From assembly GCA_951406725.2 (NCBI GenBank), contig CATOCA020000001.1:9796001-9860000 (forward strand): a stretch of DNA of 64,000 nucleotides. Direction: 5' to 3'. Under the pieces are notes generated by a model. The model worked only from the letters and a program-made list of their open reading frames with translations. It ran no database searches and was not told where the DNA came from. Positions 6,001 to 58,941 of this stretch are shown piece by piece; positions within the stretch are counted from its first letter, which is position 1; each line of letters opens with the position of its first letter. The stretch is from Octopus vulgaris (taxonomy: Eukaryota). The translations under genes were made by a program, and so were the position numbers.

Positions 6001-9000
6001 ATTACCCACCCACGAATTACATGCCCCTGAATTACATACACCTGGATTACGAGCCCCTCAATTACCTGCACCTCAATTACATGCCCCTGAATTACAAGAC
6101 CCTGAATTACCTGCCCATGAATGACATTCCTATAAATTACCTTCCCCTAAATTACATTGCTCTGTATTACCTGCCCCTGAATTACCTGCCAATGAATGAC
6201 ATTACTCTAAATCACCTGCACCTGGATTACCTTTCCCTCAATTACCCGCACATGAATTACATGCCCGATTTACCTGCCCCTGAATTACATACCCCTGAAT
6301 TACCTTCCCATAAATTACATACACCTGAATTACATGCCCGTGAATTACCTGCTTGTGAATTACCAGCCCCTAAATTTCATGCCCCTGAATGACCTGCCCC
6401 TTAATTAGTTACCCCTGGATTACCTGCCCCTGAATAACCTATACCTGAATAACCTGCCCCTGAATAACATACACCTGAATTACATACACCTGAATTACAT
6501 GCCCCTCAATTACATGCCCCTCAATTACATGCAACTGATTTACATGCCCCTGAATAACCTGCACCTGAATTACATACACCTGAATTACCTGCCCCTAAAT
6601 TACATGCCCCTGAATTACCTGCCCCTGAATGACATGCCCCTCAATTACCTGCCCATATATTACCTGCCCCCCAATTACCTGCCCATGAATTAAATGGCCA
6701 TGAATTACCTGCCCCTAAATTACATGACCCTGAATGACCTGCCCCTGAATGACATGCCTCTGAACTATCTATCCCTAAATTACCAGCCCCTGAATTACCT
6801 GCCCGTGAATGACATGCCCTGAATTACCTTTCATCTGAATTACATGCCCCTGGATTACCTGCCCCTAAATTACCTGCAGATGAATGACATTCCTCTAAGT
6901 TACCTGTCCCTGAATTACCCCTGAATTACCTGCCCCTGGATTACCTTCCCCTGAATTACATGCCCCTGAATTACATTCCTCTGAATTACCCACCCACGAA
7001 TTACATGCCCCTGAATTACATGCCCCTGAATTACCTACCCCTGAATTAGACACCTGAATTACCTGCACCTCAATTACATGCCGCTGAATTACCTAACCCT
7101 GAATTACCTGCCCCTGAATTACCTTCCCTGAATGACATGCCCCTGAATAACATGCCCCTGAATTACATACCCCTGAATTACCTGCCCATTAATTACATGC
7201 ACCTGAATTACCTGCCCCTGAAGTATCTACCCCTGAGTCCCTGAATAACCTGCACCTGAATTACCTGCCCCTGAATTATATACACTTGAATTACATGCCC
7301 GTGAATTACCTGCCCGTGAATTACCTGCCCGTGAATTACATGCCCCTGAATGACATGCCCCTCAATTACCTGCCCATGAATTAAATGCCCCTAAATTACC
7401 TTCCCCTGAAGTACCTGCCCCTAAATTACAAGCACCTGAATTACATGGCCCTGAATTACCTGTCTCTTAATTACATGCACCTGAATGACCTGCCCCTGAA
7501 TGACATGCCTCTGAATTATCTATCCCTAAATCACCAGCCCCTGAATTACCTGCCCGTGAATTACATGCTCCTGAAATACATGCACCTCGATTACCTGCCC
7601 CTGAATTACATGCCCCTGGATTACCTGCCCATGAATTGACATTCTTCTAAATTACCTGTCCCTGAATTACGCCTGAATTACCTGCCCCTGGATTACCTTC
7701 CCCCGAATTACATTCCTCTGAATTACCCACCCACGAATTACATGCCCCTAAATTACATACACCTGGATTACAAGCCCCTCAATTACCTGCACCTCAATTA
7801 CATGCCCCTGAATTACAAGACCCTGAATTACCTGCTCATGAATGACATTCCTATAAATTACCTCCCCCTGGATTACCTTCCCCTGAATTACATTGCTCTG
7901 TATTACCAGCCCCTGAATTACCTGCCAATGAATGACATTACTCTAAATCACCTGCACCTGGATTACCTTCCCCTCAATTACCCGCACATGAATTACATGC
8001 CCGAATTACCTGCCCCTGAATGACATTCCCCTGAATTACATACCCCTGAATTAGCTGCCCATAAATTACATACCCCTGAATTACATGCCCGTGAATTACC
8101 TGCCCGTGAATTACCTGCCCCTAAATTAACATTCCCCTGAATGACATGCCCCTCAATTACCTGCCCATGAATTACATGCCCCTGAACTACCTGCCCCTGA
8201 ACTACATGCCCCTGGATTACCTGCCCCTGAATTACATGCCCCTGGATTACCTGCCCCTGAATTACATGCCCCTGGATTACCTGCCCCTGGATTACCTGCC
8301 CCTGAATTACCTTCCCCTGAATAACATACATCTGAATTACCTTCCCCTGAATTACCTGCCCTGAATTACATACCCCTGAAGTACCTGCCCCTGAATTACC
8401 TGCCCCTAAATAACATGCATCTGAATTACCCGCCCCTGAATTGCAAACACCTGAATTACCTGCCTCTGAATTATCTATCCCTAAATTACCTGCCCGTGAT
8501 TGACATGCCCCTGAATTACCTTTCATCTGAATTACATGCCCCTGAATTACATACCCCTGAATTACCTGCCCATGAATAACATTCCTATAAATTACCTGTC
8601 CCTTAATTACCTTCCCCTGAATTACATGCCACTGAATTACATTCCTCTGAATACCTGCCCCTGAATTACCTGCCAATGAATGACATTACTCTAAATCACC
8701 TGCACCTGGATTACCTTCCCCTCAATTACCCGCCCATGAATTACATGCCCGAATTACATGCCCCTGAATTACCAGCCCCTGAATTACCTTCCCTAAATGA
8801 CATGTCCCTGAATTACATACCCCTGAATTACCTGCCCATGAATTACATGCACCTGAATTACATACACCTGAATTACCTGCCCCTGAACTATCTGCCCCTG
8901 AGTTACCTGCCCCTCAATTACCTGCCCAAGAATTACATACACCTGAATTACATGCCCGTGAATTACCTGCCCCTAAATTACATGCCCTTCAATTACCTGC

Positions 9001-12000
9001 CCATGAATTACATGCCCCTGAACTACCTTCACCTTAATTACATGCCCCTGGATTACCTGCCCCTGAATTACCTTCCCCTGAATAACATACATCTGAATTA
9101 CCTGCCCCTGAATTACATACCCCTGAAGTACTTGCCCCTAAATTACATGCATCTGAATTACCTGCCGCTGAATTGCAAACATCTGAATTACATGGCCCTC
9201 AATTAGATGCCTCTTAATTACAAGCACCTGAATGACCTGCCCTTGAATTACCTGCACCTAGATTACCTGCCCCTGAATAACATTTTCTCTGAATTACAAG
9301 CCACTGAATTACATACCCCTGAATTACCTGCCCCTGCCCATGAATGACATTCCTCTAAATTACCTGTCCCTGAATTACCTGCCCCTGGATTACCTTCCCC
9401 TGGATTACCTAACCCTGAATTACCTGCCCCTGAATGACAATCCTCTAAATTACCTTCCCTGAATTACATGCCCCTGAATTACATTCCTCTGAATTACCCA
9501 CCCATGAATTACCTGCCCCTTAATTACCTACCCCTGAATTACATGCACCTCAATTACATACACCTGAATTACATGCCCCTTAATTACATGCACCTGAATT
9601 ACATTCCCCTGAATTACCTGCACCTGGATTACATAAACCTGAATTAACTGCACCTGAATTACATGCCACTGAATTACCTTGCTCTGAATTACATACCCCT
9701 TAACTACTTAACCCTGGATTACCTGCCCCTGAATAACCTACACCTGAATAACCTGACCCTCAATTACCTTCCCCTGAATTACATGGCCCTGAATTACCTG
9801 CCCCTTAATTACATGCACCTGAATGACATGCCTCTGAATTATCTATCCCTAAATTACCATCCCCTGAATTACCTGCCCCTGAATTACATGCCCCTGAATG
9901 ACATTCCTCTAAATTACCTGTCCCTGAATTACCCCTGAATTACATGCCCCTGAATTACATGCCCCTGGATTTCCTAACCCAGAATTACCTGCCCCTGAAT
10001 GACAATCCTCTAAATTACCTTCCCTGAATTACATTTCTCTGAATTACCCACCCATGAATTACATGCCCCTGAATTACATGCCCCTCAAATACCTGCACCT
10101 CAATTACATGCCCCTGAATTACATGCCCCTAAATTACCTGCCCATGAATTACATGCCCCTGAACTACCTGCCCCTTAATTACATGCCCCTGGATTACCTG
10201 CCCCTGAATTACCTTCCCCTGAATAACATACATCTGAATTACCTGCCCCTGAATTACCATCCCCTGAATTACCTGCCCCTGAATTACCTGCCCCTGAATG
10301 ACATTCCTCTAAATTACCTGTCCCTGAATTACCCCTGAATTACATGCCCCTGGATTTCCTTACCCAGAATTACCTGCCCCTGAATGACAATCCTCTAAAT
10401 TACCTTCCCTGAATTACATTCCTCTTAATTGCCCACCCATGAATTACATGCCCCTGAATTACATACACCTGAATTACATGCCCCTCAAATACCTGCACCT
10501 CAATTACATGCCCCTGAATTACATGCCCCTCAATTACCTGCCCATGAATTACATGCCCCTGAACTACCTGCCCCTTAATTACATGCCCCTGGATTACCTG
10601 CCCCTGAATTACCTTCCCCTGAATAACATACATCTGAATTACCTGCCCCTGAATTACCTGCCCCTGAATAACCTAACCCTAAATAACCTGACCCTGAATT
10701 ACCTTCCCCTGAATCACCTGCCCCTGAATTACAAACACCTGAATTACCTGCCCCTCAATTACATGCCTCTTAATTACATGCACCTGAATGACCTGCCTCT
10801 GAATTATCTATCCCTAAATTACCTGCCCGTGAATGACATGCCCCTGAAATACCTGCCCCTGAATTACCTAACCCTGAATTACCTGCCCATGAATGACATT
10901 CCTATAAATTACCTGCCCCTGAATTACCTTTCATCTGAATTACATGCCCCTGAATTACATTCCTCTGAATTACCTGCCCCTGAATTACCTGCCAATGAAT
11001 GACATTCCTCTAAATCACCTGCACCTGGATTACCTTCCCCTCAATTACATGCCCCTGAATTATCTGCCCCTGAGTCCCTGAATAACCTGCACCTGAATTA
11101 CCTGCCCCTGAATTACATACACCTGAATTACATGCTCGTGAATTACCTGCCCCTAAATTACATGCCAATGAATTACCTGCCAATGAATCACATACACCTG
11201 AATTACATGCCCCTAAATTACATGCCCCTGAATGACATGCCCCTCAATTACCTGCCCCTGAACTACCTGCCCTTTAATTACATGCCCCTGAATAACATAC
11301 ACCTGAATTACCTGCCCCTGAATTACATACCCCTGAAGTACCTGCCCCTAAATTACATGCATCTGAATTACCTGCCCCTGAATTGCAAACACCTGAATTA
11401 CATGGCCCTCAATTACATGCCTCTTAATTACATGCACCTGAATGACATGCCTCTGAATTATCTATCCCTAAATTACCTGCACCTAGATTACCTGCCCCTG
11501 AATTACCTTTCATCTGAATTAATTGCCCCTGAATTACATACCCTGGATTACCTAACCCTGAATTACCTGCCCATGAATGACATTCCTTTAAATTACCTGT
11601 CCCTGAATTACCCCTGAATTACCTTCCCCTAAATTACATTCCCCTGAATTACATACACCTGAATTATATGCCCCTCAATTACCTGCACCTCAATTACATG
11701 CCCCTGAATTACATGCACCTGAATTACATTCCCCTGAATTACCTGCACCTGGATTACATAAACCTGAATTACCTGCCCCTGAATTACATGCCCCTCAATT
11801 AACTGCCTCTGAATTACCTTGCTCTGAATTACATGCCCCTGAATTACATGCCCCTTAATTACTTAACCCTGGATTACCTGCCCCTGAATAACCTACACCT
11901 GAATAACCTGACCCTGAATTACATACCCCTGAATTACATGCCCCTCAATTACCTGCCCGTGAATTACATGGCCCTGAATTACATGTCCCTGAATTTCCTG

Positions 12001-12158
12001 CCCCTTAATTACATGCCCCTGAATTACCTGTCCCTGAAATACATGCACCTGGATTACCTGCCCCTGAATTTCCTGCGCCTGGATTACCTGCCTTGAATTA
12101 CCTGCCCCTGAATTACCTGCCCCTGAATTACCTGTCCCTGAATTACATGTCCCTGAAT
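1..12158. repeat. 15-bp tandem satellite, consensus approx. CCCCTGAATTAC(C/A)TG; continues past the left edge
   Basis: Uninterrupted head-to-tail copies of ...CCTGAATTACCTGCC... with point variants and occasional indels. The LNYLP/PELPA/QGQVI ORFs are by-products of the 15-bp (5-codon) period. Confidence 0.98.
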
Positions 12159-36942: not shown

Positions 36943-37525
<583 letters not shown>

Positions 37526-37556
37526 AATATATACATACATATAGATATGTATTTAC

Positions 37557-37601
<45 letters not shown>

Positions 37602-37702
37602 GATATGTATGAACGTATGTGTGTACATATATATAAACGTGTGTGTATATGTAACATATTTCTAAGAATAGATACATTCATACATACATCTACATATACA
37701 TA

Positions 37703-37750
<48 letters not shown>

Positions 37751-37781
37751 GAATTTAGCTGAAATTAAGAATTTAGCTGAA

Positions 37782-38885
37782 ATGATACCAACAATTATAA
37801 AATCTACAAGAGAAAGCCTACCACAACCTCCTTGGATGTCAGAAATAAACGAAAGAAATCTGGAAAAAGAGGCACACCGAAAAAGAGAAGAGATACAGAA
37901 GACATGGAAAAAACTCCTTAACATAAGAAAACAAAACTTCTGGAAGGCATATAAATGCGAAAAATATGCTGAAATACATTCGAAATGGATATCTTTAGCG
38001 GCACCCATACTTCCTCGGAAGTACCTAATTAAAGAAATTGCAGGAGAACCAGAGGAAGAAACTAAACTTCGATGGGACCTTAGTTTGATAAAATTCAGGA
38101 CCGACATCTCCATTACCCTGTCTAAACAATCCCGCTACAAAGCCAAATACGAAGCTATCGATGATCAAATCAGAGATGAAATATCCAAACTAACGACCGG
38201 CAATATAGCAGAAAAAATGCGAGAACTATGGATCAGAGATATCTCAAAAGAAGAAAGCAGATCAAGAAAGTTTTGGCAGCGGAAACAATTATTTCTCGAC
38301 AAATATGCTACAAATTACGGTAAAGACACCAGAACTCCGAGAAATAGCATTAAAAGTGGACAACCTCACCAACGCAACATACACCAGAACACGTGGCAAC
38401 ATGAACACCCGTTTCACCACGAATCGAAGACGAACTACGGTAAGAACTCTTCCCATTTTGTATGCAAACACCCTAATGCACACAGCATGAACAAAAAGCA
38501 CAAACAAAATAGATATTGTTTTGAACAGACCATTAGCAGTAGAAATAACAGGAGATCATTTTCAAGACCTCAACAGAGATTACCCACAAGAAACTGGACA
38601 AAAAACCGATCTAGATCTAGAAGTAAACCCAGATCATTTCTCCAGGTGGTTAAAAACAATGCTAACAAGAAATTGAAAAGTAGCATACATAATACCAAAA
38701 ACAAGACAGAAAACATAACGAAACCAAGTAAAGTACCACAACCAAAACGCAAAATTCATCAAGCAAACATCAACAGGAATATAAATCATAACCAGAAAAA
38801 AATCCATTTTTTTACGTCAGGACAACAAACACCGGAGAAAGAAAAAATCCAAGAGGAAACATACCCCAAACAACTGAACGTATAG
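37782..38885 (+). CDS. PLE upstream ORF1: predicted helical/coiled-coil N-half and basic, RS-rich low-complexity C-half
   Basis: Open from ATG 37782. The ORF-track start at 37563 lies in microsatellite. Stops at 38885 and overlaps the RT frame. Confidence 0.75.
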
Positions 38886-41119
38886 ATCCTAAAATAATTA
38901 ATTTATCAAAAAGAGATCTTGACAATGATGAAATCCAACTTCTGTCAAAAGGACTGAAATTCACACCTACACCAACAGCCAACCACCAAGAATTAAAGGA
39001 GGATATCCAAAAATTCTGTCGAAAATTACGACTTGTAGAATTCTTCGCTAACAAAAGTAATGAGATTGATGAATCCCTAGTAAGGAATAAATCAAATTTC
39101 ACCCCACCAAAAGGAAGAAATAACTACCTTGACCAATACATTGATATCCTGTCTAAATTTCCCCTTAGACGCAATACCAATGTTAGGCCAAACATTAGCA
39201 AATCAGAGATGTCTGCATGTAAACGTATACAAAACGATCAAACAATAATAATTAAACAAGCAGATAAAGGTGGTGCAATTGTTATTATGGATACCGAATA
39301 CTATAAGGATTTGGTTGAAGACCAACTGAAGGATACAACCTTCTATTGTGAAATACCCGCAAATATAGACCACCACATCATGAAAAAGATCAACAACCTG
39401 ATTTCAACACACCACAACTCACTTACGGATAATGAAAAAGACTACATCACCAATTTTGAACCAAAACCCAGCAACTTCTACGGCTTACCAAAAATACACA
39501 AATCAAAAAACATTCAACAGGCAGTAAAAGAACAAGAAAGTGAGTACATAAAATTATTACATCCAAAAGACCTAAAACTTAGACCTATTATAGCTGGTCC
39601 AGCATGCCCTACACACCGTCTAAGCAATTTTATTGACATTGTTTTGAAACCACTATGTACTTACATACCAAGTTTCATCAGGGATGACATCGACTTCCTG
39701 TCCCATCTTCCCAAAACAACAGAAACAAATTCAGTTTTGCTAAGTTTTGATGTGGTAAGCCTCTACACCAATATTCCACACGATTTAGGAATAAAGGCGA
39801 TTAAATACTGGTTAGAAAAACATAGAGAAGTGATTCCCAGCAGATTCACAGTGCCATTTATATTAGACACAGTCAAACTTATTCTAGAAAATAACACATT
39901 CTTCTTCAATGGAAAGAATTACATCCAAATTAGAGGCACGGCGATGGGAACGAGGTTTGCTCCCGTTTACGCCAACTCTGTAATGGGATACTTAGAAGAA
40001 CAACTCTACCAAGAGGTGGAGGTAAACTATGGCACTGGATTTAGAAAGTATATTGAAAAGGCATGGAAGAGATACCTAGACGACTGTTTCATAATCTGGA
40101 CAGAATCTCTAAATACTCTGGAAGAGTTCAATATCCTCCTGAACAACCTACACCCATCTCTCAAATTTACAAAGGAGATGAGTAGTACCAAATTACCATT
40201 CCTGGATATAATGGTAATTAAAAAAGACACCACCATCACCACAGATATATACTATAAACACACAGACACACATCAATACCTAAATTTTAAGTCGTGCCAT
40301 CCACCACATACAAAACGTAACATCCCATACTGCCTAGCCAGAAGAATTTGTACTATTGTAGAAGATGCAAATATCAGGAACAAACGCCTAATAGAACTAA
40401 GAGAATTTTTGCTCAAACAAAAATACCCATCTCTACTTATAGAAAATGGCATACAGCGGGCTATAAAAATACCTATACAACAACTTAGGACAACCCAAGG
40501 AAGAGGAAAACAAGAACAAGTCATACCATTCATAGTGACACACAACCCATGTCACCAGAATATCTTCAACATTGCCAAAGCAAACCTACCAATCATTGCC
40601 CAAAGTAATGAATTAAAAGACATAATCAAGGATCGAGCTATGGTGCTTAGTAAAAGACAGCCTAAAAACTTGAAAACATTACTAACAAAGGCAAAATTTG
40701 ACCTCAGCAACAAAGACCAAACATTCACGGTATCTAAATGCAATGATAGCCGATGTGGCACATGCCAATTCATACATACCGGTCAATATATAAACACAAA
40801 AACCGGGAAAATATTCACAAACGCGAATATGAACTGCAAAAGCAGAAATTTAATTTACTGCATCAAATGCCCAAATTGTGAAGAAATATATGTAGGTCAG
40901 ACGGGAAACGCACTATTAGAACGCTCACGTGTACACCGGCAACAGATTAGAGACCCAGAGGTCCGTCAGATACCTTTGAGTAACCACCTAGCAACATGTG
41001 GTCGGAAAATATATATAATATTTCCATTCTACAAATTACACAGCCCAAGTGAAATCGAGAGGAAAATCAGAGAAAAGAATTTTATTGATAAATTCGAACC
41101 CAAGCTAAATAAGCAATAA
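38792..41119 (+). CDS. PLE reverse transcriptase plus GIY-YIG endonuclease
   Basis: Frame is open from 38792 (first ATG 39209). Motifs: [50 protein letters not shown], CxxxxCxxC linker, NLIY..YVGQT..R..H. Confidence 0.95.
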
Positions 41120-41433
41120 TAATAATACTTAGAGGTATTACTTCCACTGCTACGACCATGACCACTAACAACAACAACAATACTAAAGGTGATCAAGACG
41201 AAGATAGCAGGAAAATTATCTTATTTAGGGTTAAAAGTTCTATTGCCACCACCATCACCACTAGCAACAATAATTAAGGTGCTGACAATGATGATGATGA
41301 CAATTGAAATATAAAAATATAAAAATCTCTGACAAAGGATATTTACATTTCTAAAAATAACCCAACAATTGCTGCTTCGGCCAGGGTCAAGATACAGGAC
41401 TCTTGACCTGTCCAACAAAGCGTGATGCCTAAA

Positions 41434-41548
41434 CCAATCAGCTCAACCAACCAATCAGCTTAAGTAATTGAGTGATACTACACACTGATTGGTCAGAATA
41501 CAGTTTGCAAAACCTAGCACTCTGGAGCCTACCCAGCTGTATTTATAG
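41434..41548 (+). promoter_or_regulatory. Putative pseudo-LTR promoter of the PLE
   Basis: CCAAT at 41434 and 41451, ATTGG at 41488 and TATA-like TATTTATAG at 41540, just upstream of the hammerhead. Confidence 0.4.
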
Positions 41549-41610
41549 CACAGAATCACTCATCTTGCTACAGTCAAAAATTGTGAAGCATGACTGTCAA
41601 CACTACTACA

Positions 41611-41655
41611 TGAACCCGAAGATTGCAGAATTCAATGCATGAAAGTACTAGTTCA
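41611..41655 (+). ncRNA. Minimal type I hammerhead ribozyme with a variant core (CCGAAGA)
   Basis: Stem I TGAAC/GTTCA; core CCGAAGA; stem II TGCA-GAATTCAA-TGCA; GAAA; palindromic stem III AGTACT followed by the cleavage-site A. Confidence 0.75.
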
Positions 41656-41781
41656 ATCAGAATGAATATTTAACATTCTACTATTTCATTTTATTTTATT
41701 CAATTATAATATATTATCTTATAATATATCATTATAAGATTGTAAATAAAACGTGAAAATCAGACAAGGTTGGAATTCTTT

Positions 41782-41837
<56 letters not shown>

Positions 41838-41840
<3 letters not shown>

Positions 41841-44800
41841 TGATTGATTGATTGATTCTAGTTTCAGCTCATGAGCTGTGGCCATGCTGGGGCACCGCCA
41901 TTTGGTGTTGCTACTTGGTTTTACTTCACGAAAGCTTTTTAGCAACTGCCATTTGGTGCATGAGAGAGTTCGATGCAGCTGCCCTCATCTGCACCTCCTG
42001 CCGTGAAGTTGGTTCATCTGGGACACCTGACAGGAAGAAATCCAGTTCCATTTTAAAGACATCTGCATCCACCCCATGCAGGTCTCTCAGGTTCTTCGGG
42101 AGGATATTGAAGAGCTGTGGGCCACGGAAGCTCGGGCTATCACAGTATCGTGTCCTACATCTTGATGGCAAATTTGGAGTCCTAGGCACCACGTAGTGGC
42201 GCCCAGTTCTGGCATTTGTGTAACTCTCGATGCCAAAGTTTGGGACACGTCCCTCCAGGATCTTCCAGATGTATATTATGGCATATCTTCCCCGCCTACG
42301 CTCCAAGGAATATAGTTTTAATCTCTTGAGTCTTTCCCAGTAGCTTACATTCTGCATAGAGGCTATCTTCTTCGTGTAGCTTCGCTGGATCGCCTCGAGC
42401 TCTGTGATCAACTCGACACTGGATGTTGACAATAACTCAGAGCAATAGTCAAAGTGGCTTAGGACAAGTGTCCTCCAGAGGACCATCAGGGTTTCTTGTT
42501 CTCTTGTTCTAAAGGTTCTGAGAATCCATCCGGCCAGCCGTCTACATTTCATTGCCAATTTAGCAACATGAACACGAAAGGTTGCGTCATCACTCATGCA
42601 AATACCCAGGTCACGCACTGATTGTGCCTCTGGGATTGCTATTCCTCCGGGTCCAGTGTATTCATTGGGTATTGCATTTAGTTTTGCATGCTGATAGTAT
42701 AAAGCTTGAAACTTTTCAGCATTGAACTGCATGCTATTCTTTTCAGCCCACTTGTATATTTCGTCCAGCTCACATTGCAGGTGCTTAGTGTCTTCAGGGT
42801 TCTGTATTGCCTGTGAAACTTTTGTATCATCTGCATAACTTGTGATCGTGGCTCTCTGCGTGGCTGAGGGCATGTCTGAGAGGGCCATTATTAACAGTAG
42901 TGGTCCCAAAACAGTGCCCTGCGGAACACCGCTCACTATTTGTGTGTTAATGGAAGTGGCCTCATTGGCTGCTACCACCTGACTTCTATTCTTCAGAAAG
43001 TCATGAAGCCATTCTCCCAATTTTCCAACTATGCCAAGATCACGCAGTTTGTGACATATCATTCCATGATCGACTTTATCAAAGGCCTTTGCAAAGTCGA
43101 GATATATGACTTCCACATTTGAGTGGTTGAGCAGTTGTTTCAGCACCCAGTCATAGTGTTGTAGGAGCTGAGTTAAACAGCTTCTTCCTGGTCGGAAACC
43201 ATGTTGGGTGTCAGGCAGCAAGTCATTTTCTTCAAGGAAGGTGATTAGTTTCCTTCTGACTATTCGTTCCATGACCTTGATGATGTGTGAGGTGAGAGAG
43301 ATAGGTCTGTAGTTCTTGGCCTCTGCTCTGCTACCACCTTTATGAATAGGGCATATTTTACCTTCCTTCAGTTTTTTTGGAAGTTTGCCAGCTGCTAGGA
43401 AGCTCTGAAAGAGGATCTGCAGTGGTCTTGCTAGGACTCTCTTACATACTTTTAGGAGGATTGCCGGGAATCTATCGGGGCCAATAGCTGATTCTGTTTT
43501 CATTTCATCTATGGCCTTTATTACATCGTCTTCCTTTATATCGATGTAATTTATCGTCGCCGCCTCTGATTTTATATCTGCAGTGGTAAAGAAGTCAGTT
43601 GGATTGGTGATTTGGAAATGCCCGAGGGGTGGAATGAAAACACTCTTGAATTGCTCATTCAGTATTTCACTTACCCTCATTGGTTTTCCTGTGAGTGTAC
43701 CATCCTTTTCAAGGAGTGGCCCTATCCTACAGTGCACCGTAGCTGTTTCTTTGGCATACCTGTAGAAAGCTCTGGGGTTAGATTTTATGTTGTCTATAGT
43801 CCAGGCTTCTTTGTCTGCTCTTTCCTTTTCATGGGAGAGTTGCAGACATTTTTCAATTTCCAACAGTTTTATTTTCAGGCGGGACTTTTCACTGCTTTCA
43901 ATCTGTTTGTTTAGGCGATTTGAAATTTTTGTACGCCGTCTCATTAAGATTTTCCTCTCTCTGGGGATTTTGTTCTTGTGTACAGTGGCCTTTCTCTCTG
44001 GGACACATTTGTAGCATATGGCTTGCGTTACAGACATGAATTGTTGAAGTTTCACGTCGATGTCTGGCGAGGAGAGACATTTAGGCCAGTTTTGTTTGAG
44101 GATCTCTTTCTCAATTTGTTTCCAGTTTGCCTTATGGTAGTTCAAGCTGGAAAGATTCTGAGGGTTTCTTGTAGGCTGCATGTCCGTGCTTTCTTTTGGC
44201 CCGTACATGGTCAGCTCTACCATGTTGTGATCCGAGAGTAGTGTCGGTGTCACTTTCACATTATGGATGAGATCCATATTATTTGTGAAGTAGAGATCCA
44301 GTGTGTTACCTGCCCTGGTTGGTTGGAGTATTACTTGCTCCATGTACAGGGTGTTGATGAGGTTCAGGAGGGACCTCGCCTGTCCTCGTTCACATCTTGT
44401 CATTCCTGGGAGAGAAAGGCCCTCGGGCCATCTGACATTGGGTAGATTGAAGTCTCCCATAAGAAGTACACTTATGTGTTGTTCTAATGTGATTAGAACT
44501 TCTTCTATTTTTATAAGGCAGTCTTCAAACTTGCCCACATGGCTTGGGGCATCTGGAGGGCGATATGTAGCACACACAACTACATCAAGTTGCCTTATAT
44601 GTACAATTAGTGTGTCACACACCGAGTTTGAGTATGACAAGAGGACCTGGGGTGTGAGGTCCTCACGGATGTACATAGCAACTCCTCCATGACTCCTTTC
44701 TTTTCTGTCGGTCCGTAGTACAACATACTGTGGTATGTGTAACTCCGCATCTGCTATGTCCGGTTTCAGGTGCGTTTCTGTAAGTGCTATGCATAAGGCT

Positions 44801-45417
44801 TGATTGCATGCAACAAAGTCTCTCAAGAACGGGATCTTTGTCCTGTTACTGAGTGTTTGCAGCCCTCTGATGTTCAGTAGGAGCATCGAGGTGAGGTGTA
44901 TGTTGTTGCCGGCGGTGTCCATCCTGGGTCTGTTTGCTGTGGTGGTCTTGTATATAGTGGGTAGTCCCACCTGCGGGCTTGGGTTTGATGAAGCCAGGTC
45001 AGCTGCTGTACAATCTTTTGTGCCATGCACAAAAAAGATTGCTGCTGCTGCCCTTTTTAACAACATCATGTTTGCGGTTTGTGGCACGCAAACATCTGCG
45101 TACCTCCGCTTTGAGGCAGGTGGTGCGTGGACCTTCCCTTTTCCTTGTGTTGATGGCTTGTCCATCTGCCTCGTGTCTCTGCGGCAGGGTCCCCGATGTG
45201 CAAAGCGGAAGCCTGCACCTTCCTTTCCATGCCAGCAGGTACCTCTCAGGTAGAACCTACACACCCGTCGGCGCTGTTTGTTTCCATCCTTTGCAGTTCC
45301 ACTTCCATTCCTGGTTGTTTCACCCTTTGGTCCTGCTTGAGCTCTTCCTTTAGCTCTTTCAGTCCTTCTTTTAGTTCTTCTTCCTCCCTCTACCTCTTCC
45401 CCGGGTTCTCCGTCTAC
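41838..45417 (-). mobile_element. CR1/L2-group non-LTR retrotransposon, 5'-truncated within ORF1, (AATC)n tail
   Basis: APE and RT ORF; (TGAT)n at 41838-41857 abuts (TA)n; absent from the duplicated copy. Confidence 0.93.
41926..45264 (-). CDS. LINE polyprotein: CCCH-like Zn-finger remnant, APE endonuclease and RT
   Basis: Motifs LNIRGL, LTETHL, YRPP, GDFN, LDL, SDH (APE); NYRPISL, QHGF, YLDFAKAFD, GVPQG, YADD (RT). No stops over 1112 codons, and the frame stays open upstream to ~45417. Confidence 0.93.
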   Translation of the reverse strand: MCRFYLRGTCWHGKEGAGFRFAHRGPCRRDTRQMDKPSTQGKGKVHAPPASKRRYADVCVPQTANMMLLKRAAAAIFFVHGTKDCTAADLASSNPSPQVGLPTIYKTTTANRPRMDTAGNNIHLTSMLLLNIRGLQTLSNRTKIPFLRDFVACNQALCIALTETHLKPDIADAELHIPQYVVLRTDRKERSHGGVAMYIREDLTPQVLLSYSNSVCDTLIVHIRQLDVVVCATYRPPDAPSHVGKFEDCLIKIEEVLITLEQHISVLLMGDFNLPNVRWPEGLSLPGMTRCERGQARSLLNLINTLYMEQVILQPTRAGNTLDLYFTNNMDLIHNVKVTPTLLSDHNMVELTMYGPKESTDMQPTRNPQNLSSLNYHKANWKQIEKEILKQNWPKCLSSPDIDVKLQQFMSVTQAICYKCVPERKATVHKNKIPRERKILMRRRTKISNRLNKQIESSEKSRLKIKLLEIEKCLQLSHEKERADKEAWTIDNIKSNPRAFYRYAKETATVHCRIGPLLEKDGTLTGKPMRVSEILNEQFKSVFIPPLGHFQITNPTDFFTTADIKSEAATINYIDIKEDDVIKAIDEMKTESAIGPDRFPAILLKVCKRVLARPLQILFQSFLAAGKLPKKLKEGKICPIHKGGSRAEAKNYRPISLTSHIIKVMERIVRRKLITFLEENDLLPDTQHGFRPGRSCLTQLLQHYDWVLKQLLNHSNVEVIYLDFAKAFDKVDHGMICHKLRDLGIVGKLGEWLHDFLKNRSQVVAANEATSINTQIVSGVPQGTVLGPLLLIMALSDMPSATQRATITSYADDTKVSQAIQNPEDTKHLQCELDEIYKWAEKNSMQFNAEKFQALYYQHAKLNAIPNEYTGPGGIAIPEAQSVRDLGICMSDDATFRVHVAKLAMKCRRLAGWILRTFRTREQETLMVLWRTLVLSHFDYCSELLSTSSVELITELEAIQRSYTKKIASMQNVSYWERLKRLKLYSLERRRGRYAIIYIWKILEGRVPNFGIESYTNARTGRHYVVPRTPNLPSRCRTRYCDSPSFRGPQLFNILPKNLRDLHGVDADVFKMELDFFLSGVPDEPTSRQEVQMRAAASNSLMHQMAVAKKLS

Positions 45418-45523
45418 ATATATATATATATGTAGATGTATGTATGAATGTATCTATTCTTAGAAATATGTTACATATACACACACGTTTATATATATGT
45501 ACACACATACGTTCATACATATC

Positions 45524-49641: not shown

Positions 49642-50774
49642 GGCAGTTTGTCTGTGCGTGTTTCTGTGTGTCTGTTTTCTCGTACCCTCACTCTGACCAC
49701 GGCTTTCAACCGATTCTGATGAAACTTGACACACACATAGCCCAATGTCATAATTCAAAACTAACGTAGCGAAAATTTTGAAAAGTTCCCCCAGTTCTGA
49801 AAAAAATTGATAAATTCGACATGGGGTCGAGAATCAGAAACACGAACCACAGACTATCTAGGGGACGCAACTCGAGAATCTAAGCTTTTTTTATGCAACG
49901 CATTATCTATGGTAGTTTTCACAACTTGCAATCGATTTTCACCAAACTCATGGTGAAGCTTAATGTTACCCTAAGAAACTCAATTCTGAAGTTAGTTTTC
50001 CATGCAATACCTTACCATCAGAAACAGTCGATAAAATCATGCCATTTTGGGAAATCGCGTTCAAATTCAAGATGACATATTTTCGACAATATCTTTCACA
50101 AATTGGCAGGAATTTTTTTTTTTTCACAACGAGCATCATGTCTGCTCCAAGGAGCTATATAGCCCTTTTTATTCCAATAGGATACATTATTGGAAAAAAT
50201 CGGTTAATTTAATCATATGTGGCACACATAGCAAACAAATTTGTGTATTAAACACAAACCAGACTGCCTAGGGGACGCAACTTGACCTTTTTAGCTATCG
50301 ATAATTCGATCCAACCAATTCCTACCAGGAAGAAATTACATTCGAGACTTTACCCCCAACACCGCCACTTCTGCTAATAGCTGCTGCAGCCGCAAGTTAT
50401 TCGAATACTTTTTTTGTTTAAACTTTCTTTATAACTACCACCCCAAACGTTTTACCTTCAATTTTTGACGTACCCTAACGGTCCTCGGACGCTACTTGCA
50501 AACTCTTGGTTTATTATAAACCACTTTTGTCGTGTGCATCAAAAAAACTTTTCCTTTCGTTTGTTCAGTTTGATCACTTTTGACTTTTTCGTTGTTGTCA
50601 CTCACATTGCTACCCGCTTTTTGGCCGTTTTTGTACATTTTTATACATTTTCGGATACTTACCCCACGAGCTCCTTTTTATTACACCTTTACCAAACACA
50701 TTGCTATCCACCAAAATACTTACCCCACGTGTTCCTTTTTATTACACCTTTGCCAAACATTGCTATCCACCAAA

Positions 50775-53384
50775 ATGCCACCCAAGAAGAGAAGGACCCT
50801 CCTCAGCCCTCGGACGGCCAAGGCATCGGCTGCTAGGGCTAGAAGGGCACGCGAGACCCACGAGGAAACCGCCTTGCGCTTCTCGCAAACAGCTTCCCGT
50901 TATGCCGCTGCTCAGGCATCTGAAACTACTAGCGACCGTTCTACCCGACTTGCAAGGGTCGCAGCGTACAGATCTTCCCTCCGCTCGAGGTTGACGAAAG
51001 AGCAACAGTCCAGCCAAAACATGCGGGCTTCTTACTGTGCTTCCATCCGCAGAGCTCGCGAGAACCACGAACAAAGGGCCATTCGGAATGCGGCTAACGC
51101 CACTAGCACCGCCAGGACACGATCTGTCGAAACCTCACAGCAGAGGAGAACTCGCCAAGATGCTGACGCCGCAAACAAAGCCATAGCCCAAGCTGCCGAA
51201 ACACCTCAACAGAGGAGAGCTCGCCAAGCTGCTAACGCCGCAAACACAGCCAGGGCTCGATCTGCCGAAACTCCACACCAACGAAATATTCGGACATCCA
51301 GACAGGCCATTAACACTGCTTCTGCTAGGGCTTCAGAGGGTGCTGAGGCGAGAGCTGAAAGGCTTTCAAGGGATGCCACTGCTACCGCTGTCGCACGTGC
51401 ATCTGAATCTGCTGAGGCACGGTGCACTCGACTTGAGAGTATCAACAAACGTCGGGATATCATTCTTGGTGTACGTACCCCTTCCCCCGCTTTCTGGTTG
51501 TCACTAGCATTCAACTACGACGCCACAATTAACTTCTCCTTGCGTGACGACATCAAGATAGGGTCAATGAGAATTGTATGCCAGTTTTGCAAAGCCAAGA
51601 AATGGCCCGGAGAGACACCTGGTTTGTGCTGCTCTGGTGGCAAAGTGGACCTGCCACCCCTACGGGAACCACCTCAACCACTGAAGGATCTCGCGGCGGG
51701 TTTAATCCCCAAATCGTCACAATTCCTTGAAATAATTCGAAAGTACAACTGCTCATTCCAAATGACCTCTTTCGGGGCCAAAATTCCTCCCAGAGAAGGC
51801 TGGATGCCTACTTTCAAAGTGCAGGGACAGGTCTACCATCTTATTGGGTCACTTCTGCCAGACGAGATTCAGCAGTCTTCTTTCCTCCAAATATACTTCA
51901 TTGCCGACTACAACCACCAGGTTGATGCACGCCTTGGAATAATACCGGGTACAAGCTATGTTCCCCGCAAAGACATTCTTCTCCGTCTCCAAACCATGCT
52001 TCATGATATCAACAGCTACGTCTGCAGCTTCAGATATGTCTTGGACAGTGCTCCATCTCCAAACTTCACCGTTGTCATTGATGCTGATAAACGACCCCAC
52101 AGGGAGCACGAACGCCGTTTCAACGCACCTGCGTGCAACGAAATTGCCGCAGTCATACACGGAGAGCGGCGACACAACAGCCGTGACATAATCATCTCCT
52201 CCCGTGGTAACAACCTACACAGGATCAGCGAGACTCACAGATCTTATGACGCGCTTCAGTATCCATTGCTTTTCCCTTATGGGGAAGACGGCTACCACTT
52301 CGGAATTCCTTTACGGCAGCCCTCCAATCAAACTACTGCGGCATCAAAGACGGTTTCCTGCAGGGCGTTCTACTCATATCGGTTCATATTCAGGGAGGGT
52401 GAGTTCAGCTTATTGCCCCGTTGTCGTCAGCTATTCAACCAGTTCGCCGTCGACATGGCCGCAAAAATGGAATCGGAAAGGCTGCTATACATTAAACTTA
52501 ATCAGACCAAACTTCGCTCCGACTCCTACATTCATCTCCGTGACGGTTTGCAACAAGAAAATGACCCTCGCAACATCGGCAAGCCATGCATTCTACCCTC
52601 CACCTTCACGGGAGGACCGCGATATATGCGTGAAAGGACCCAAGACGCCTTGACCTACGTGCGCATTTACGGCCGGCCGGACCTCTTTATCACCTACACG
52701 TGCAATCCCAGCTGCGACGAAATCACTCGCGAACTCCTCCCGGGTCAATCTCACACCCATCGACACGACATCGTTGCTAGGGTTTTCCGTCTGAATTTGG
52801 GCAAAATTAAGGATTTGATAGTTAAGGGTCAGATTTTCGGGCATGTCAGGTGCCACGTTTTCGGTCGAGTGGCAAAAGAGGGGCTTGCCACATGCTCACG
52901 TCTTAATTTGGCTCACTCATAAAATCGAGACTAATGACATTGACAAATTCATTTCCGCCGAGATTCCTGACCCCGATGAGGACCCCGGACTCTACGAAAT
53001 TGTCCGCACTACCATGGTACACGGGCCCTGTGGACCAAATTACGCCAACACACCATGCTACAAAAACGGATTAGCCTGCTCAAAGGGATTCCCTAAACGG
53101 TTCACTTTGGAGACTCAAACAGGCGGCGATGGGTATCCGCTGTACAAACGAAGGAGTCGAGCCAATGGAGGCCGCACGATTACGGTTGGGCGACATCAAG
53201 TGGACAACAGCTACATTGTCCCCTACTGTCCTCTCCTGTCGAAGATATTCAAAGCCCACGTCAACGTTGAGTTCTGCAGCTCCATCAGGTCAATACAATA
53301 TGTCTGCAAATATATCAACAAAGGCAGCGATGTTGCCATGTTCAGCATCCAGAGGACCACCAGTCGCGACGAAGTGTCCAACTA
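50775..53384 (+). pseudogene. Helitron Rep (HUH endonuclease) half of RepHel; frameshift at ~52860
   Basis: MPPKKRR start, Cys motif CQFC..CCSGG, PSTFTGGPRYM, PDLFITYTCNP, (frameshift) VEWQKRGLPHAH (HUH), MVHGPC, YVCKYINKG. Confidence 0.92.
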
Positions 53385-55037
53385 TTTTCAAACAAGATGA
53401 TGGTCGTGAACCCCCTCCATTTGATAGATCGGTACCTCCAATGCTTCGATTGATCATCACGCGGGACGAAGTCAAACGTGTTATCCAAGGCATCGATGTC
53501 AACAAGGGTCACGGCCCTGATGGCATACACCCACGGGTTATCAAAGCGTTGGCTCCGGTCATCTGCGAGCCCTTAACACGACTATTCAATATGTCATTGG
53601 CGACGGGTGTTATACCTGCAGACTGGAGAACAGCGATAATCTGCCCAATTTTCAAGAAAGGGAGCCGCGAAGACCCGCTTAACTACCGACCGGTTTCCCT
53701 TACATCAATAATCAGCAAGATGTTCGAAACCATCCTTAAGAAAAGTATGATGCTCCACCTCCTAAACACAGCCTCGATCACTGATTCCCAACACGGCTTC
53801 GTGCCGAAGAGATCATGCTTGACCAACTTACTAGTAATGGAAGAATTGGTGACGTGCATCCTCGATGATAGTGATGCTGTTGACATCGTTTTATTGGACT
53901 TTGCCAAAGCTTTTCACTCGGTAAACCACCGCCTACTACTTGTCAAGCTTCAAGCATATAGTTTCCATCCGGATATTGTACGATGGGTTGGTGCCTTCCT
54001 CTCAGATCACTCCTTCCAAGTTCAAGTTAATGGTTCGCGGTCCGACGTCTCCAGTGCGAGCAGTGGCGTGCCTCAAGGTTCAGTGCTTGGGCTCTTGTTG
54101 TTCTTAGTCTTCATAAATGACTTGCCCGACGACCTCACGCAACACACCCTTCTATTTGCCGACGATATCAAACTGGTCGCTCCTCGCGGTAGTATAGAGG
54201 ATCTTCGTCGATGCCTCCACCAAATTTGGAAGTGGTCTAACGATTGGGACCTGTGTCTGAACGTGTCAAAGTGCTGTCATCTGCCTGTCGGCTCTACTCC
54301 TGCAACTCAACTTGATTTCGAGCCGGGTCGTCTGCTGCTGGAGAGGACCGATCAGGTAAAGGACCTGGGTATCTTGGTGGATTCCTCCTTTTCGCCTTCG
54401 GCCCAGTGCGTCCATGCTGCCAACAAAGCGCGCGGAATTCTGTTTTTGATTCGACGGTCATTCGGAATGCTCACAGCAGCCATATTCCTGCCACTCTATG
54501 TCACGCTGGTGAGACCCATATTGGAGTATGGGATTCAAGCCTCTTCTCCTTATCTTCTCAAAGACATACAGCATCTCGAAAGAGTCCAGAGGCTGGCTAC
54601 CCGCATGGTTCATGGTCTCAAAAATTTGTCCTACGAAGAAAGGCTGAGGACGCTCGACCTTTATTCTCTTGAAAAACGCCGCCGCCGTGGTGATCTCATT
54701 CTCGCCCACAACATCATAAGCGGGAAGTGTAACCTCTCGAAAGAGCTGTTCTTCACTCCTGCTCCGGAACGTCGGCTGCGGGGTCATTCCGAAAAGCTCT
54801 ACCTGCGACGATTTCATCTCAATCGAAGGAGAGGAGCTTTCTCCGTCCGGGTTGCGGATCCGTGGAACAAGCTGCCAGACGAGATGGTGAAGATGCCGAC
54901 GACCGCTTTGTTCAGAGCCTCCCTGGACCTCAAGTGGCCTGAACTCTTTACATGAACACCACCCTGTACTTAACTCCATATCCCCCTACATGGCCTTGCT
55001 ATTTGCTTTTGAGCCAAATTAACTAACTAACTAACTA
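53385..55037 (+). mobile_element. 5'-truncated CR1-clade LINE inserted into the Helitron RepHel ORF
   Basis: RT motifs GPDGI, NYRPVSL, QHGF, LLDFAKAF, GVPQG, FADD, RRRGDL; stop at 54955; (AACT)n tail 55021-55037; AACTA on both sides. Confidence 0.93.
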
Positions 55038-57278
55038 CTTGGCTGGCCGGTACCTCAGCAGCAACGAAGCGTTTTGGCGCATTTACGGCTTCCCGTTCCA
55101 TCAGAGACACCCGGCTGTGGTGCAGCTTGCTGTACACTTGGAAAATGGACAGCGGATTTACTTCACAGAGCAAAGTGCTGTGCAGGTAGCCACCAGCCCT
55201 AAAGACACAACGTTGACTGGTTTCTTCAAATTATGCCAACGTGATGACTTCGCTCGAACGCTTTTGTACCCACAGGTCCCATCGTACTTCGTGTGGTCTA
55301 AAAACACCTGGGTTCGACGGAAATCCGGCAAAAACGTCGAAGGCTTCCCAGGCGTCAAGTTTGACTTCTGCCTGGGTCGAGTTTACAACATCCCGCCAAA
55401 CCAGCAAGAATGCTTCTACCTCCGTCTCCTTCTACATGAGGTCAATGGTCCAACAGGTTTCGCCAATATACGTACCATCAATGGGGTTCTGTGCGACACC
55501 TTCAGGGAAGCATGTATGAGACTTGACCTTCTAGAGGATGACTCCCAGTGGGACGCCACGATGGCAGAGGGCGCTTTACTGCAAACGCATTCGGCCCTAC
55601 GACATCTTTTCGCAATCCTTCTTCAAAAATGTCAGCTTAGTGATCCACTAAGTCTCTGGATGAAATACAGGGATGACATGTCGCACGACTTCTTACGTAC
55701 GGCTCAGCAACACTGCCCTTCCGCCGAGATCACGTTCACCAACTTCATTTACAATTTTGCGCTCATTCAACTCGAAGACGCTGTCATCGATATGGGTGGG
55801 TCTGCTTTAACAGAGTACGGCCTTCCACCACCCACACGTGAACACGCCAATGTTATGTCTGCTGAATTGTTACGCGAAACTTCCTACTGCATTGAGGAAC
55901 TGCACCAGTACGTCCAAGATAATGAACCACGGCTGCTTCCAGACCAGCGCATAGCCTACAACACCATCGTAGACTCTGTCAGACAGCAACGTGGAGGGAT
56001 TTTCTTCCTTGATGCACCCGGCGGCACTGGCAAAACCTTCGTCACTAAACTAATTCTGGCAGAGGTCAGATGCAACACGGACATTGCCCTGGCTGTAGCT
56101 TCCTCTGGTATCGCGGCCACGTTGCTTCCGGGTGGCAGAACCGCCCACTCTGCCTTCAGACTCCCGCTCGATCTGGCAAAGTCCGAGTCACCTATCTGCA
56201 ACATCGCCAAGAACTCAGAACATGCCGACATTCTGCGCAGATGCAAACTCATCGTATGGGACGAGTGCACTATGGCACACAAAGGCGCCCTTGAGGCACT
56301 GGACAGGTCCCTGCAAGACATCAGAGACTCTACGGCCCCCATGGGAGGATTAACTTTACTTCTTTCAGGAGACTTCAGGCAGACTCTAACTGTTATTCCA
56401 AAAGGAACCCGTGCCGATGCCGTGTGCGCGTGCCTTAAGTCGTCAGCTCTTTGGGCACATGTGCGGCCCTTGCACCTCCAAACTAACATGCGCGCGCAGT
56501 TAATTGGTGACAGCGGATCCGCTGCATTCTCCAGGGACCTCTTATCGCTCGGTGAAAATAGGATGCTGTCTGATGCGGATGGCTACGTTCAATTGGACTC
56601 ACTTTGCACCATTGTCGACACCCCTGTTAGCCTCCGGGACGCTGTCTTCCACGACCTACAAAACAATTTACGCGACCTAAAATGGCTGGCAGGCAGAGCT
56701 ATTCTCGCACCCAAAAATACAACCGTCAACTCCATCAATGTCCAGCTACTTGAAGCTATTCCTGGTGATGTCCACGTCTACAAATCTATAGATAGGACAG
56801 CAGACCCCGCCCAGCTTGCCGATTATCCTGTTGAATTCCTGAATTCACTTGAACCGCCAGGCCTGCCACCACACATCCTGAAGTTAAAAGTCGGTGCGCC
56901 CATTATGCTCATCAGGAATTTGGTTCCACCTAAACAGTGCAACGGCACACGTTTGGTTGTGAAACATTTGGCACCACATTTAATAACGGCCACAATACTT
57001 ACCGGTTGTGGGAATGGAGAGGACGTCTTCATTCCACGGATGCACCTTCAATCCACTTCAGGCGTTCTTAGTTTCCTGTTAAACTCTGCTTCGCAATGTC
57101 CATCAATAAATCCCAAGGCCAAACGCTACAAGTCGCTGGGTTACATTTGGGCGAACAGTGCTTCGCCCACGGTCAACTCTACGTGGGCTGTTCACGCGTT
57201 GGGAGGCGCAATGATGTTTTCATGTTTTCGCCCAAACGGACAGCTAGGAACATCGTATATACAGAAGTATTCCAGTGA
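55038..57278 (+). pseudogene. Helitron PIF1-family helicase half of RepHel; frameshift and stop near 57040-57075
   Basis: AGRYLSSNEAFWR, DAPGGTGKT (Walker A), ASSGIAA, GRTAHS, WDE, GDFRQ, ILAPKN, CNGTR, then shifted AMSINKSQGQTL..HGQLYVGCSRV. Confidence 0.92.
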
Positions 57279-57400
57279 AGACAAGACATTGCAACGTCCA
57301 CATGCACCTTCGTTCCATGGAGGGAAATGACTACATTGGGATTAGTCGTTGCCTATTAGGGGCTCTTACATACCCGGGCAACGCCGGGCTATGCTGCTAG

Positions 57401-57432
<32 letters not shown>

Positions 57433-57684
57433 CGTGTGTGTGTGTTTGTGTGTCTGTGTTTGTCCCCCTAGCATTGCTTGACAACCGATGCTAGTGTGTT
57501 TACGTCACTTAGCGGTTCGGCAAAGTAGACCGATAGAATGAGTACTAAGCTTACAAAGAATAAGTCCCGGGGTCGATTTGATCGACTAAAGGCGGTGCTC
57601 CAGCATGGCCGCAGTCAAAATGACTGAAACAAGTAAAAGAGTAAAAGAGTAATATATACATACATATAGATATGTATTTACGTA

Positions 57685-57732
<48 letters not shown>

Positions 57733-57830
57733 GATATGTATGAACGTATGTGTGTACATATATATAAACGTGTGTGTATATGTAACATATTTCTAAGAAT
57801 AGATACATTCATACATACATCTACATATAT

Positions 57831-57884
<54 letters not shown>

Positions 57885-57915
57885 GTAAATACATATCTAT
57901 ATGTATGTATATATG

Positions 57916-57965
<50 letters not shown>

Positions 57966-58539
57966 TATATATATATAAACTTATACATACATATGCGTGC
58001 ATATTTCTATTGCATATATAAACATATATATTTATGTGTATACATGCACATACATGTGTGAGTGTACGGCGTCTCAGCTGTGTTCAATGCAGAAAAATGA
58101 ATATAGTCGCAGGAGTGGCTCTGTGGTAAGTAGCTTGCTAACCAGCCACATGGTTCCGGGTTCAGTCCCACTGCGTGGCATCTTGGGCAAGTGTCTTCTG
58201 CTATAGCCCCGGGCCGACCAATGCCTTGTGAGTGGATTTGGTAGACGGAAACTGAAAGAAGCCTGTCGTATATATGTATATATATATGTGTGTGTGTGTG
58301 TTTGTGTCTGTGTTTGTCCCCTAACATTGCTCGACGACCGATGCTGGTGTGTTTACGTCCCCGTCACTTAGCGGTTCGGCAAAAGATACCGATAGAATAA
58401 GTACTAAGCTTACAAAGAATAAGTCCCGGGGTCGAGTGGCTCGACTAAAGGCGGTGCTCCAGCTTGGCCGTAGTCAAATGACTGAAACAAGTAAAAGAGT
58501 AAAAGAGTAATATATACATACATATAGATATGTATTTAC

Positions 58540-58584
<45 letters not shown>

Positions 58585-58941
58585 GATATGTATGTACGTA
58601 TGTGTGTACATATATATAAACGTGTGTGTATATGTAACATATTTCTAAGAATACATACATTCATACATACATCTACATACGCCGTGTGTATGAATGTGTT
58701 TCTAAATGTGCATTTATACATGTGTGTGTGTGTATGTGTATGCACATATGTATGTATGCATGTATATATGTTTGTATGTATGTATAAATGTATATATATA
58801 TATATGTGCATAGATATATGCTTACACACAAATACATGCACGTACAATATATCCGCATATATATATATATGGATAGATTGATAGATAGTTAGATAGATAG
58901 ATACATGCATACATACACACATTCATACATATATACAGACT

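Follow-up and report, generated by a model that had tools for sequence, protein, structure and literature searches.

The window analysed here, a stretch of 64,000 nt of the Octopus vulgaris genome, carries a non-LTR retrotransposon whose 3′ end resembles that of its most abundant SINE, and this raises the question of whether the LINE, or a relative of it, supplies the enzyme that mobilises the SINE. A reading made from the sequence alone had proposed the pair on the basis of two 46-nt strings, one at the 3′ end of each element, and both strings are present where it placed them. Aligned with the SINE, the LINE tail reaches a local score of 47, compared with 27 for the best of 2,000 shuffles. 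The two kinds of tail differ greatly in number, with 16 of SINE type and one of LINE type in the window; in the 2.8 Gb of genome searched, an exact 34-nt piece of the LINE tail has 886 matches and the equivalent exact piece of the SINE tail has 46,316. With SINE tails this common, a SINE fragment might have become fused by chance to the end of this particular LINE. The proposed pairing had been staked on other copies of the LINE also having the tail, and 30 of the 30 fetched loci with the LINE 3′ end carry it in identical, family-specific form followed by (AATC)n; these are the window copy, its two paralogues on contigs C42 and C48, and 27 others truncated at many lengths from the 5′ end. Together with the 886 matches genome-wide, and with the finding that every related LINE family has its own version of the tail, this leaves a chance fusion with practically no probability, and it was rejected. 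The tail belongs to the LINE, and that of the SINE comes from the same lineage.

The homology between SINE and LINE begins at the base of hairpin 1, the first of two hairpins that are predicted in all six tails that were folded. Hairpin 1 is almost invariant among families, while hairpin 2 is family-specific. The sequence-only reading had described a hairpin set between nearly identical flanking blocks; its hairpin exists as the second of the two, but the best-conserved one, in which LINE and SINE share 19 of 20 nt, was not named there. The near identity of the flanks does not extend to the 3′ block, which agrees at 4 of 11 positions including the terminal repeat (AATC in the LINE, TAAAAGAG in the SINE). 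In an alignment of ten hand-picked rows, 99.2% of cells pair in the predicted twin hairpin, against at most 42.5% in slid controls. The covariation that had been put forward as a check is partly borne out, as two pairs of hairpin 2 are changed on both sides in a compensating manner and the covariation score was reached by 0 of 500 shuffles, but the pair count was reached by 37 of 500 and is not significant in this small alignment, the structure having been derived from the same ten sequences. Fold z-scores are weak for the A, B and D tails (−0.9 to −1.6). By look, distant LINE families with about 40% amino-acid identity (L108, L103, L347, L318, L044) have a similar twin hairpin with a longer first loop, followed by GAAAC and a short repeat. 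The features of the window are collected in Table 1.

Table 1. Elements of the LINE, the SINE and their surroundings, in positions of the 64,000-nt window
Feature	Position	Strand	Remark
LINE family A copy, 5′-truncated APE-RT non-LTR retrotransposon	41838..45415	-	sits in a (TA)n tract
ORF2, 998 aa counted from first Met, APE endonuclease and reverse transcriptase	41926..44922	-	open but decayed
ORF1 remnant from codon 121, zinc-finger region	45045..45415 (lower end approximate)	-	now in frame with ORF2
Predicted hairpin 1 of the LINE tail	41880..41899	-	conserved across families; truncations and joins fall at its 5′ base
Predicted hairpin 2, plus AAAC	41861..41878	-	stem and loop family-specific
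Family A terminal repeat (AATC)5	41838..41857	-	
Full-length SINE, in which a head with motifs resembling A and B boxes (by eye) is followed by an internal (TA)n/(TG)n, the body and a tail derived from the LINE	37056..37526	+	
SINE predicted twin-hairpin module	37466..37505	+	LINE homology from the hairpin 1 base
Spacer AAG of the SINE, then terminal repeat (TAAAAGAG)2	37506..37524	+	identical to the family D end
Penelope-like element between SINE and LINE, RT and GIY-YIG ORF 38792-41119	37750..41786 (ends approximate)	+	absent from the C48 paralogue
Local duplication, second unit, with the same two SINEs	57427..58807	+	without the LINE and Penelope insertions

The window LINE, a member of what we call family A, had been taken for an intact element, and this description does not survive comparison with its relatives. 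Pfam places APE and RT domains in a 1,175-aa open frame and gives no RNase H family match in the LINE ORF2; a PDB search matched nothing but proteins of L1, R2 and group II introns. Longer family A copies reveal the real layout, an ORF1 of about 300 aa (with Myb/SANT-like and CCCH matches in other A copies that are weak and all below Pfam cut-offs) followed by an ORF2 of about 1,000 aa. In the window copy the 5′ UTR and the first 120 ORF1 codons are missing and a frameshift fuses the ORF1 remnant to ORF2. Only ORF2 is still open, and it has 14 changes at residues where three other A copies, B and D agree. The C48 paralogue carries a frameshift. The copy had also been held to be younger than the local duplication, the second unit of which is without the LINE. 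Its private divergence of 0.83% is not below the divergence between the duplicated flanks (0/242, 6/545 and 3/410 substitutions, or 0 to 1.1%), and for this reason divergence does not settle the age of the LINE relative to the duplication. Elsewhere, contig C28 carries several tandem arrays of family A copies spaced about 5.66 kb apart (L231-L232, G000:C28, 6.8-22.8 Mb), apparently amplified together with their flank.

Much of the window is repeated on contigs C42 and C48 (78 kb), which are either paralogues or uncollapsed haplotypes; C48 differs by about 0.5-0.7% outside microsatellites. The Penelope-like insertion, whose RT and GIY-YIG ORF is open, is likely recent, because the C48 paralogue has the LINE insertion but not this one. 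A TA-rich sequence of about 110 nt lies in inverted orientation on both sides of the block formed by the Penelope and LINE elements (37590-37700 and 45415-45520). Further along, a Helitron with Rep and PIF1 domains (50574-57330) is interrupted by a second LINE piece (53075-54955), which looks like a canonical CR1-type element and is only 33% identical to family A. The window opens with a 12-kb tandem array (4-12158) of about 816 copies with a 15-nt period.

Families B, C and D were found in the flanks of fetched loci. Their amino-acid identity to A is 72% for B, about 57-67% for C (from decayed pieces) and 63-65% for D, and their exact tails number 1,669 (B, with a 27-nt pattern), 46 (C) and 499 (D) in the genome. 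Single copies represent further families, E (L259), F (L190) and a distant G type (L108, L318, L044). Families A to D and a protein of Argonauta form one clade (100/100), apart from two stork proteins and the second LINE of the window at 53075. The Argonauta protein is the closest named relative (64% to family D), and the only named vertebrate matches are the stork proteins at 34-35%, which we take to be CR1. Families A to D are filed in the CR1 group by anatomy only, that is, by an ORF2 with APE and RT, a separate ORF1 and a short tandem terminal repeat, the reference tree being one without L2, Crack and Daphne. Several terminal repeats besides AATC occur in the A lineage (L427-L454); the repeat is therefore labile and a weak marker of partnership, and there are subfamilies that the exact pattern missed. 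Family D appears the freshest in sequence, with copies on different contigs 99.9% alike over 1.8 kb and with two-ORF open copies (L336, L341, L342). Words of family D (L336:1060-4300) also occur at 87-94% in sequencing runs with four organism labels, a near-identity that may reflect close relatives or transfer. No RNA sequencing data containing family D were listed, and contigs from runs only guessed to be RNA cover it, one of them with 3,847 nt from ORF1 to the terminal repeat and 15 differences; we do not count this as a sign of expression.

Turning to the SINE, 87 untargeted copies, sampled so as to leave out SINE-targeted loci and the window paralogues, fall into three age layers of 2.4%, 7.4% and about 16%. 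None of the 87 equals the majority sequence of its subfamily (one single-member cluster at K=4 was left out). The terminal repeat of the young subfamily is mostly TAAAAGAG (20/32), and that of the middle subfamily is TAAAAGAG in 16/40 and the repeat of family C, TAAAAGAA, in 14/40. Neither ARAGORN nor Rfam gave a match for a tRNA origin of the head, whose A and B boxes were seen by eye only. Ohshima and Okada are said to have described three tRNA-derived octopus SINEs, OK, OR1 and OR2, in 1994. The present SINE, which resembles them, may be one of the three. All three are named in later work on other molluscs (PMC4758252; PMC4824008), and a report on O. vulgaris puts SINEs at 11.6% of the genome and mentions recently active CR1 and SINE families (PMC13282606).

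Which LINE family drives this SINE depends on whether the tail, the age or the target is compared. Over 50 nt of tail, the SINE is identical to A at 34 positions, to B at 34, to C at 43 and to D at 44. Its hairpin 1 matches that of C at 20 of 20 positions, its hairpin 2 stem is likewise that of C, and its last 11 nt match D throughout; by comparison, A differs in both loops and in the terminal repeat, agreeing at 11 of 19 positions in the hairpin 2 region besides the poorly matched end. Because of these matches, the SINE tail most likely descends from a C/D-type family and not from the family A of the window. The median ages point elsewhere. Measured as distance to the majority sequence over 165-250 nt, in samples of 11-87 copies in which the LINEs were selected by pattern, they are 2.6% for A (ages being inflated where subfamilies mix, as in A), 1.3% for B, 4.8% for C, 0.4% for D and 2.4% for the young SINE subfamily, from which the age test dropped 6 of 32 copies (7.9-17.3%) as misassigned. 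The young subfamily is older than D (p = 9e-8) and younger than C (p = 7e-5), overlaps partly with B, and overlaps with A (p = 0.08). Family C overlaps the middle SINE subfamily, and almost every sampled SINE copy is older than D; a search for an older D-like family came up empty in 1.7 Mb of loci and among the 100 matches listed of 441. Age thus favours A or B as the enzyme source of the last SINE burst, and that enzyme may have come from A, B, an ancestor of D or an unsampled family.

Insertion sites give a similarly divided answer. A run of (TA)3 or more follows 29/30 D, 23/30 B, 42/70 A and 16/30 C copies but 8/30 SINE copies, with a background of 13%; all of them lean towards TA-rich sites, but target preference differs, being lowest in the SINE. 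Nested insertions are of little help in dating. They consist of one young SINE inside a C copy (L037/L061) and one B copy between two halves of a SINE (L102); matches amounting to 177 kb for A, 77 kb for B and 111 kb for D (duplicates included) contain no inserted SINE. No sampled family fits both tail and age, and the driver may be any of several. The pairing of LINE and SINE is correct at the level of the LINE lineage, the "close relative" of the proposal being the better fit to the tail, and the suggestion that the system may still be active is best supported for D and B and weak for the SINE, given its lack of undiverged copies.

Two more specific answers can be set against this lineage-level one. 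Family A may have supplied the enzyme for the youngest and largest SINE burst by way of hairpin 1, ignoring hairpin 2 and the terminal repeat, in line with the overlapping ages, the 19 of 20 nt shared in hairpin 1, a TA-flank rate of the SINE closer to A and C than to D, and the open ORF2 of several A copies (L233, L237, L239). We consider this unlikely, because the tail identity is low and neither the loops nor the terminal repeat agree; the specificity of ORF2p is determined by the loop in zebrafish L2 (PMC4176376), which argues against A, although L2 is a different clade. Moreover, the SINE body is found at 0 of 70 A-tail loci, and copies consisting of the tail alone make up 49/70 A ends but 1/30 SINE ends (p = 2e-10), a difference that may reflect the RNA and not the enzyme. 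The true driver could instead be an unsampled family of the lineage, about 2-3% old and with a tail that matches the SINE's almost exactly, and the SINE would now be largely quiet. This would account for the mismatch of tail and age in every sampled family and for the 0/87 undiverged SINE copies, and more families (E, F and the G type) were indeed met by chance in flanks, yet the roughly 1.7-2.0 Mb of loci examined, which make up only 0.07% of the genome, contain none of this kind, and all four cases of a SINE-type hairpin 2 without a SINE body are also without a LINE body upstream; we regard it as doubtful to the same degree. Far less credible is a site-specific Tx1 LINE as driver, as SINE head sequence follows only 7 of 209 SINE tails, at seven different positions, and the 79 unassigned module matches include no other repeated carrier except 5S copies and families E and F. 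No Tx1 copy was recognised in the fetched loci.

The tail-only copies proved to be a general feature of the lineage. They account for 49/70 ends in A (taken as genome-ordered pattern matches), 13/30 in B, 13/30 in C (where 3 of 16 "short" copies were reclassed as long on inspection), 3/30 in D and 1/30 in the SINE. Their 5′ ends are not scattered. In family A, an 8-nt zone at the hairpin 1 base holds 30 of them and hairpin 1 itself another 17, and 5 ends lie in the next 234 nt, compared with the 30 in the 8-nt zone (p ~1e-39); 8 of the 13 short B copies end at the same boundary. Pairs of LINEs and SINEs have been described before, as have chimeras with small RNAs; a fixed truncation and joining boundary at the hairpin 1 base appears to be new. 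Neither the pair nor the boundary is reported in the available text of the literature searched, which includes PMC3531059, PMC9115989, PMC8967140 and PMC4494074 and has Repbase, Dfam and the 1994 octopus SINE paper outside its scope, and the same literature names no driver for the SINEs of O. vulgaris. A term search finds no mention of octopus in the available text of PMC3747384 or PMC5786205, and so no octopus pair in the former, and the words "partner" and "tail" are absent from that of PMC13282606; the families themselves may already be in the supplements of PMC13282606, in Repbase or in Dfam.

The same boundary is used when small RNAs are joined to the tail. A search that detects only joins within 30 nt found 46 joins of 5S rRNA to the tail genome-wide, all with different junctions, and its reversed-pattern control found 0; for comparison, a slightly longer 5S end motif has 232 genome matches. 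The different junctions identify these as independent one-off events and not as a family. A SINE3 family founded by the 5S-tail element in L098 (Rfam 94 bits) was considered and rejected, as 46 of 46 junctions differ and several tail types are involved. A family could be assigned to 28 of 30 fetched joins (A-type in 19, B in 4, D in 1 and SINE in 4), and in every one of these the match to the family stops 1-6 nt upstream of hairpin 1. A complete U6 precedes one A tail (Rfam 102 bits) and 5S precedes one C tail (Rfam 97 bits), and many of the 5S copies in chimeras are near full length. When 30 5S ends were taken in genome order with tails disregarded (L456-L485), the module came next in 10, this SINE's very start in 7 and the apparent starts of two other SINEs in 6; by eye, none of the 30 was directly followed by a body of families A to D. 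It follows from the joins to the module and to the very start of the SINE that 5S is added where an RNA begins. Dispersed 5S copies in this set are mostly joined to something, and a U6 copy abuts the start of this SINE in L205.

Target-primed reverse transcription is well-established biology, and it is from this that we infer a mechanism, which we think probably correct as a whole. The 40-nt predicted twin-hairpin module is common to at least four LINE families, and ORF2p would bind it, nick TA/AT-rich DNA with its endonuclease and prime reverse transcription on the short terminal repeat. The SINE, with its C/D-derived tail, would likely borrow the ORF2p of the lineage and would likely have been passed between drivers as families rose and fell; its three age layers (about 16%, about 7% and 2.4%) make such a change of drivers within the lineage likely. 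Decay of the Pol II LINE RNA from 5′ to 3′ would halt at the protein-bound module and leave an RNA of 55-70 nt; Pol III SINE RNA would mostly escape this decay. Inserted alone, the short RNA would yield the tail-only copies; a jump of the reverse transcriptase from it onto 5S or U6 RNA would yield the chimeras; and one such join to a tRNA-like RNA may have founded the SINE. The hairpin 1 base likely acts as a 5′ end of RNA, because 5S is appended alike at true SINE starts and at this position.

A near-equal rival dispenses with the short RNA. On full-length RNA, the reverse transcriptase may stall or switch template just past the GC-rich hairpin 1, aided by microhomology of AAT with the target, and we judge this only somewhat short of an even prospect. 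It is in keeping with the 17 of 49 short A copies that end inside hairpin 1, with the AAT just upstream in A and C that resembles their AT-rich targets, and with template switching as the accepted model for U6-LINE chimeras (PMC4476161). Stalling fares less well with family B, which is without an AT-rich upstream sequence and has the same boundary in its short copies, and with the 5S joins, which occur at this boundary without target DNA. The SINE, moreover, has the same hairpin 1 and rarely stops there (1/30), while 5S is joined more often at its 5′ start (7/30). The low tail-only rate of D (3/30) is unexplained by the decay model, and stalling fits it poorly too. Taking the decay model further, and more tentatively than either, the protein-bound twin hairpin might survive as a free RNA of 55-70 nt that is itself the minimal mobile unit, inserted alone to make up to 70% of the 3′ ends of a family and adding Pol III RNAs to its 5′ edge by repeated capture. 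The genome would then hold dozens of independent proto-SINEs built like the abundant SINE, and the latter would persist by passing between LINE families via hairpin 1.

The lineage provides a candidate partner for octopus SINEs, with young open copies and with natural variants of loop and repeat through which specificity can be approached. The first gain of a LINE tail by a SINE is usually inferred from a single ancient event, and this step becomes directly testable here through a minimum of 46 independent joins at the boundary that the SINE also uses. As a LINE-SINE pairing, the system is of a textbook kind in a new genome; the tail-only copies and the repeated capture of 5S at the boundary of the SINE itself lift it above routine.

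Among known systems, eel UnaL2/UnaSINE is reportedly based on a stringent LINE whose ORF2p was shown to need the 3′ stem-loop, with short terminal repeats and not poly(A). This pair is listed in a table of PMC3747384, and ZfL2-1 and ZfL2-2 of zebrafish, likewise stringent LINEs with an ORF2p shown to need the stem-loop and with short terminal repeats instead of poly(A), resemble the octopus elements in anatomy (PMC4176376). There one stem-loop with a family-specific loop was tested, whereas the octopus tail has two predicted hairpins, one near-invariant and one family-specific, and the twin hairpin, unlike the structures of ZfL2 and UnaL2, is common to four or more coexisting families and a SINE. 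Closer to octopus, the bivalve BivaV-SINE2, BivaCORE-SINE1 and Vhc_1 share a structured 3′ tail and compensatory stem changes with CR1-labelled LINEs (oyster CR1-14_CGi and CR1-1_CGi), and more than one LINE family is named for one tail, a likeness by description and not by sequence; unlike for octopus, the available text reports no tail-only copies, fixed boundary or small-RNA chimeras (PMC4824008; PMC4758252). The chimeras U6-L2, U6-Mon-1 and U6-AnolisSINE2 of platypus and lizard, like those of octopus, combine a small Pol III RNA with a short stretch from the 3′ end of a stringent LINE or its SINE, and the work on them names template switching as the way in which SINEs acquire LINE tails (PMC4476161). 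These chimeras contain U6 where the octopus ones mostly contain 5S, and the octopus joins keep to 1-6 nt from a single structural boundary, which the SINE shares, a kind of boundary that does not appear in the available text of that report. Finally, the 5S-derived SINE3 and SINEU also combine a small-RNA head with a 3′ part derived from or mobilised by a LINE, but they are families amplified from master copies (PMC4494074), whereas the 46 octopus elements have 46 junctions and form no family.
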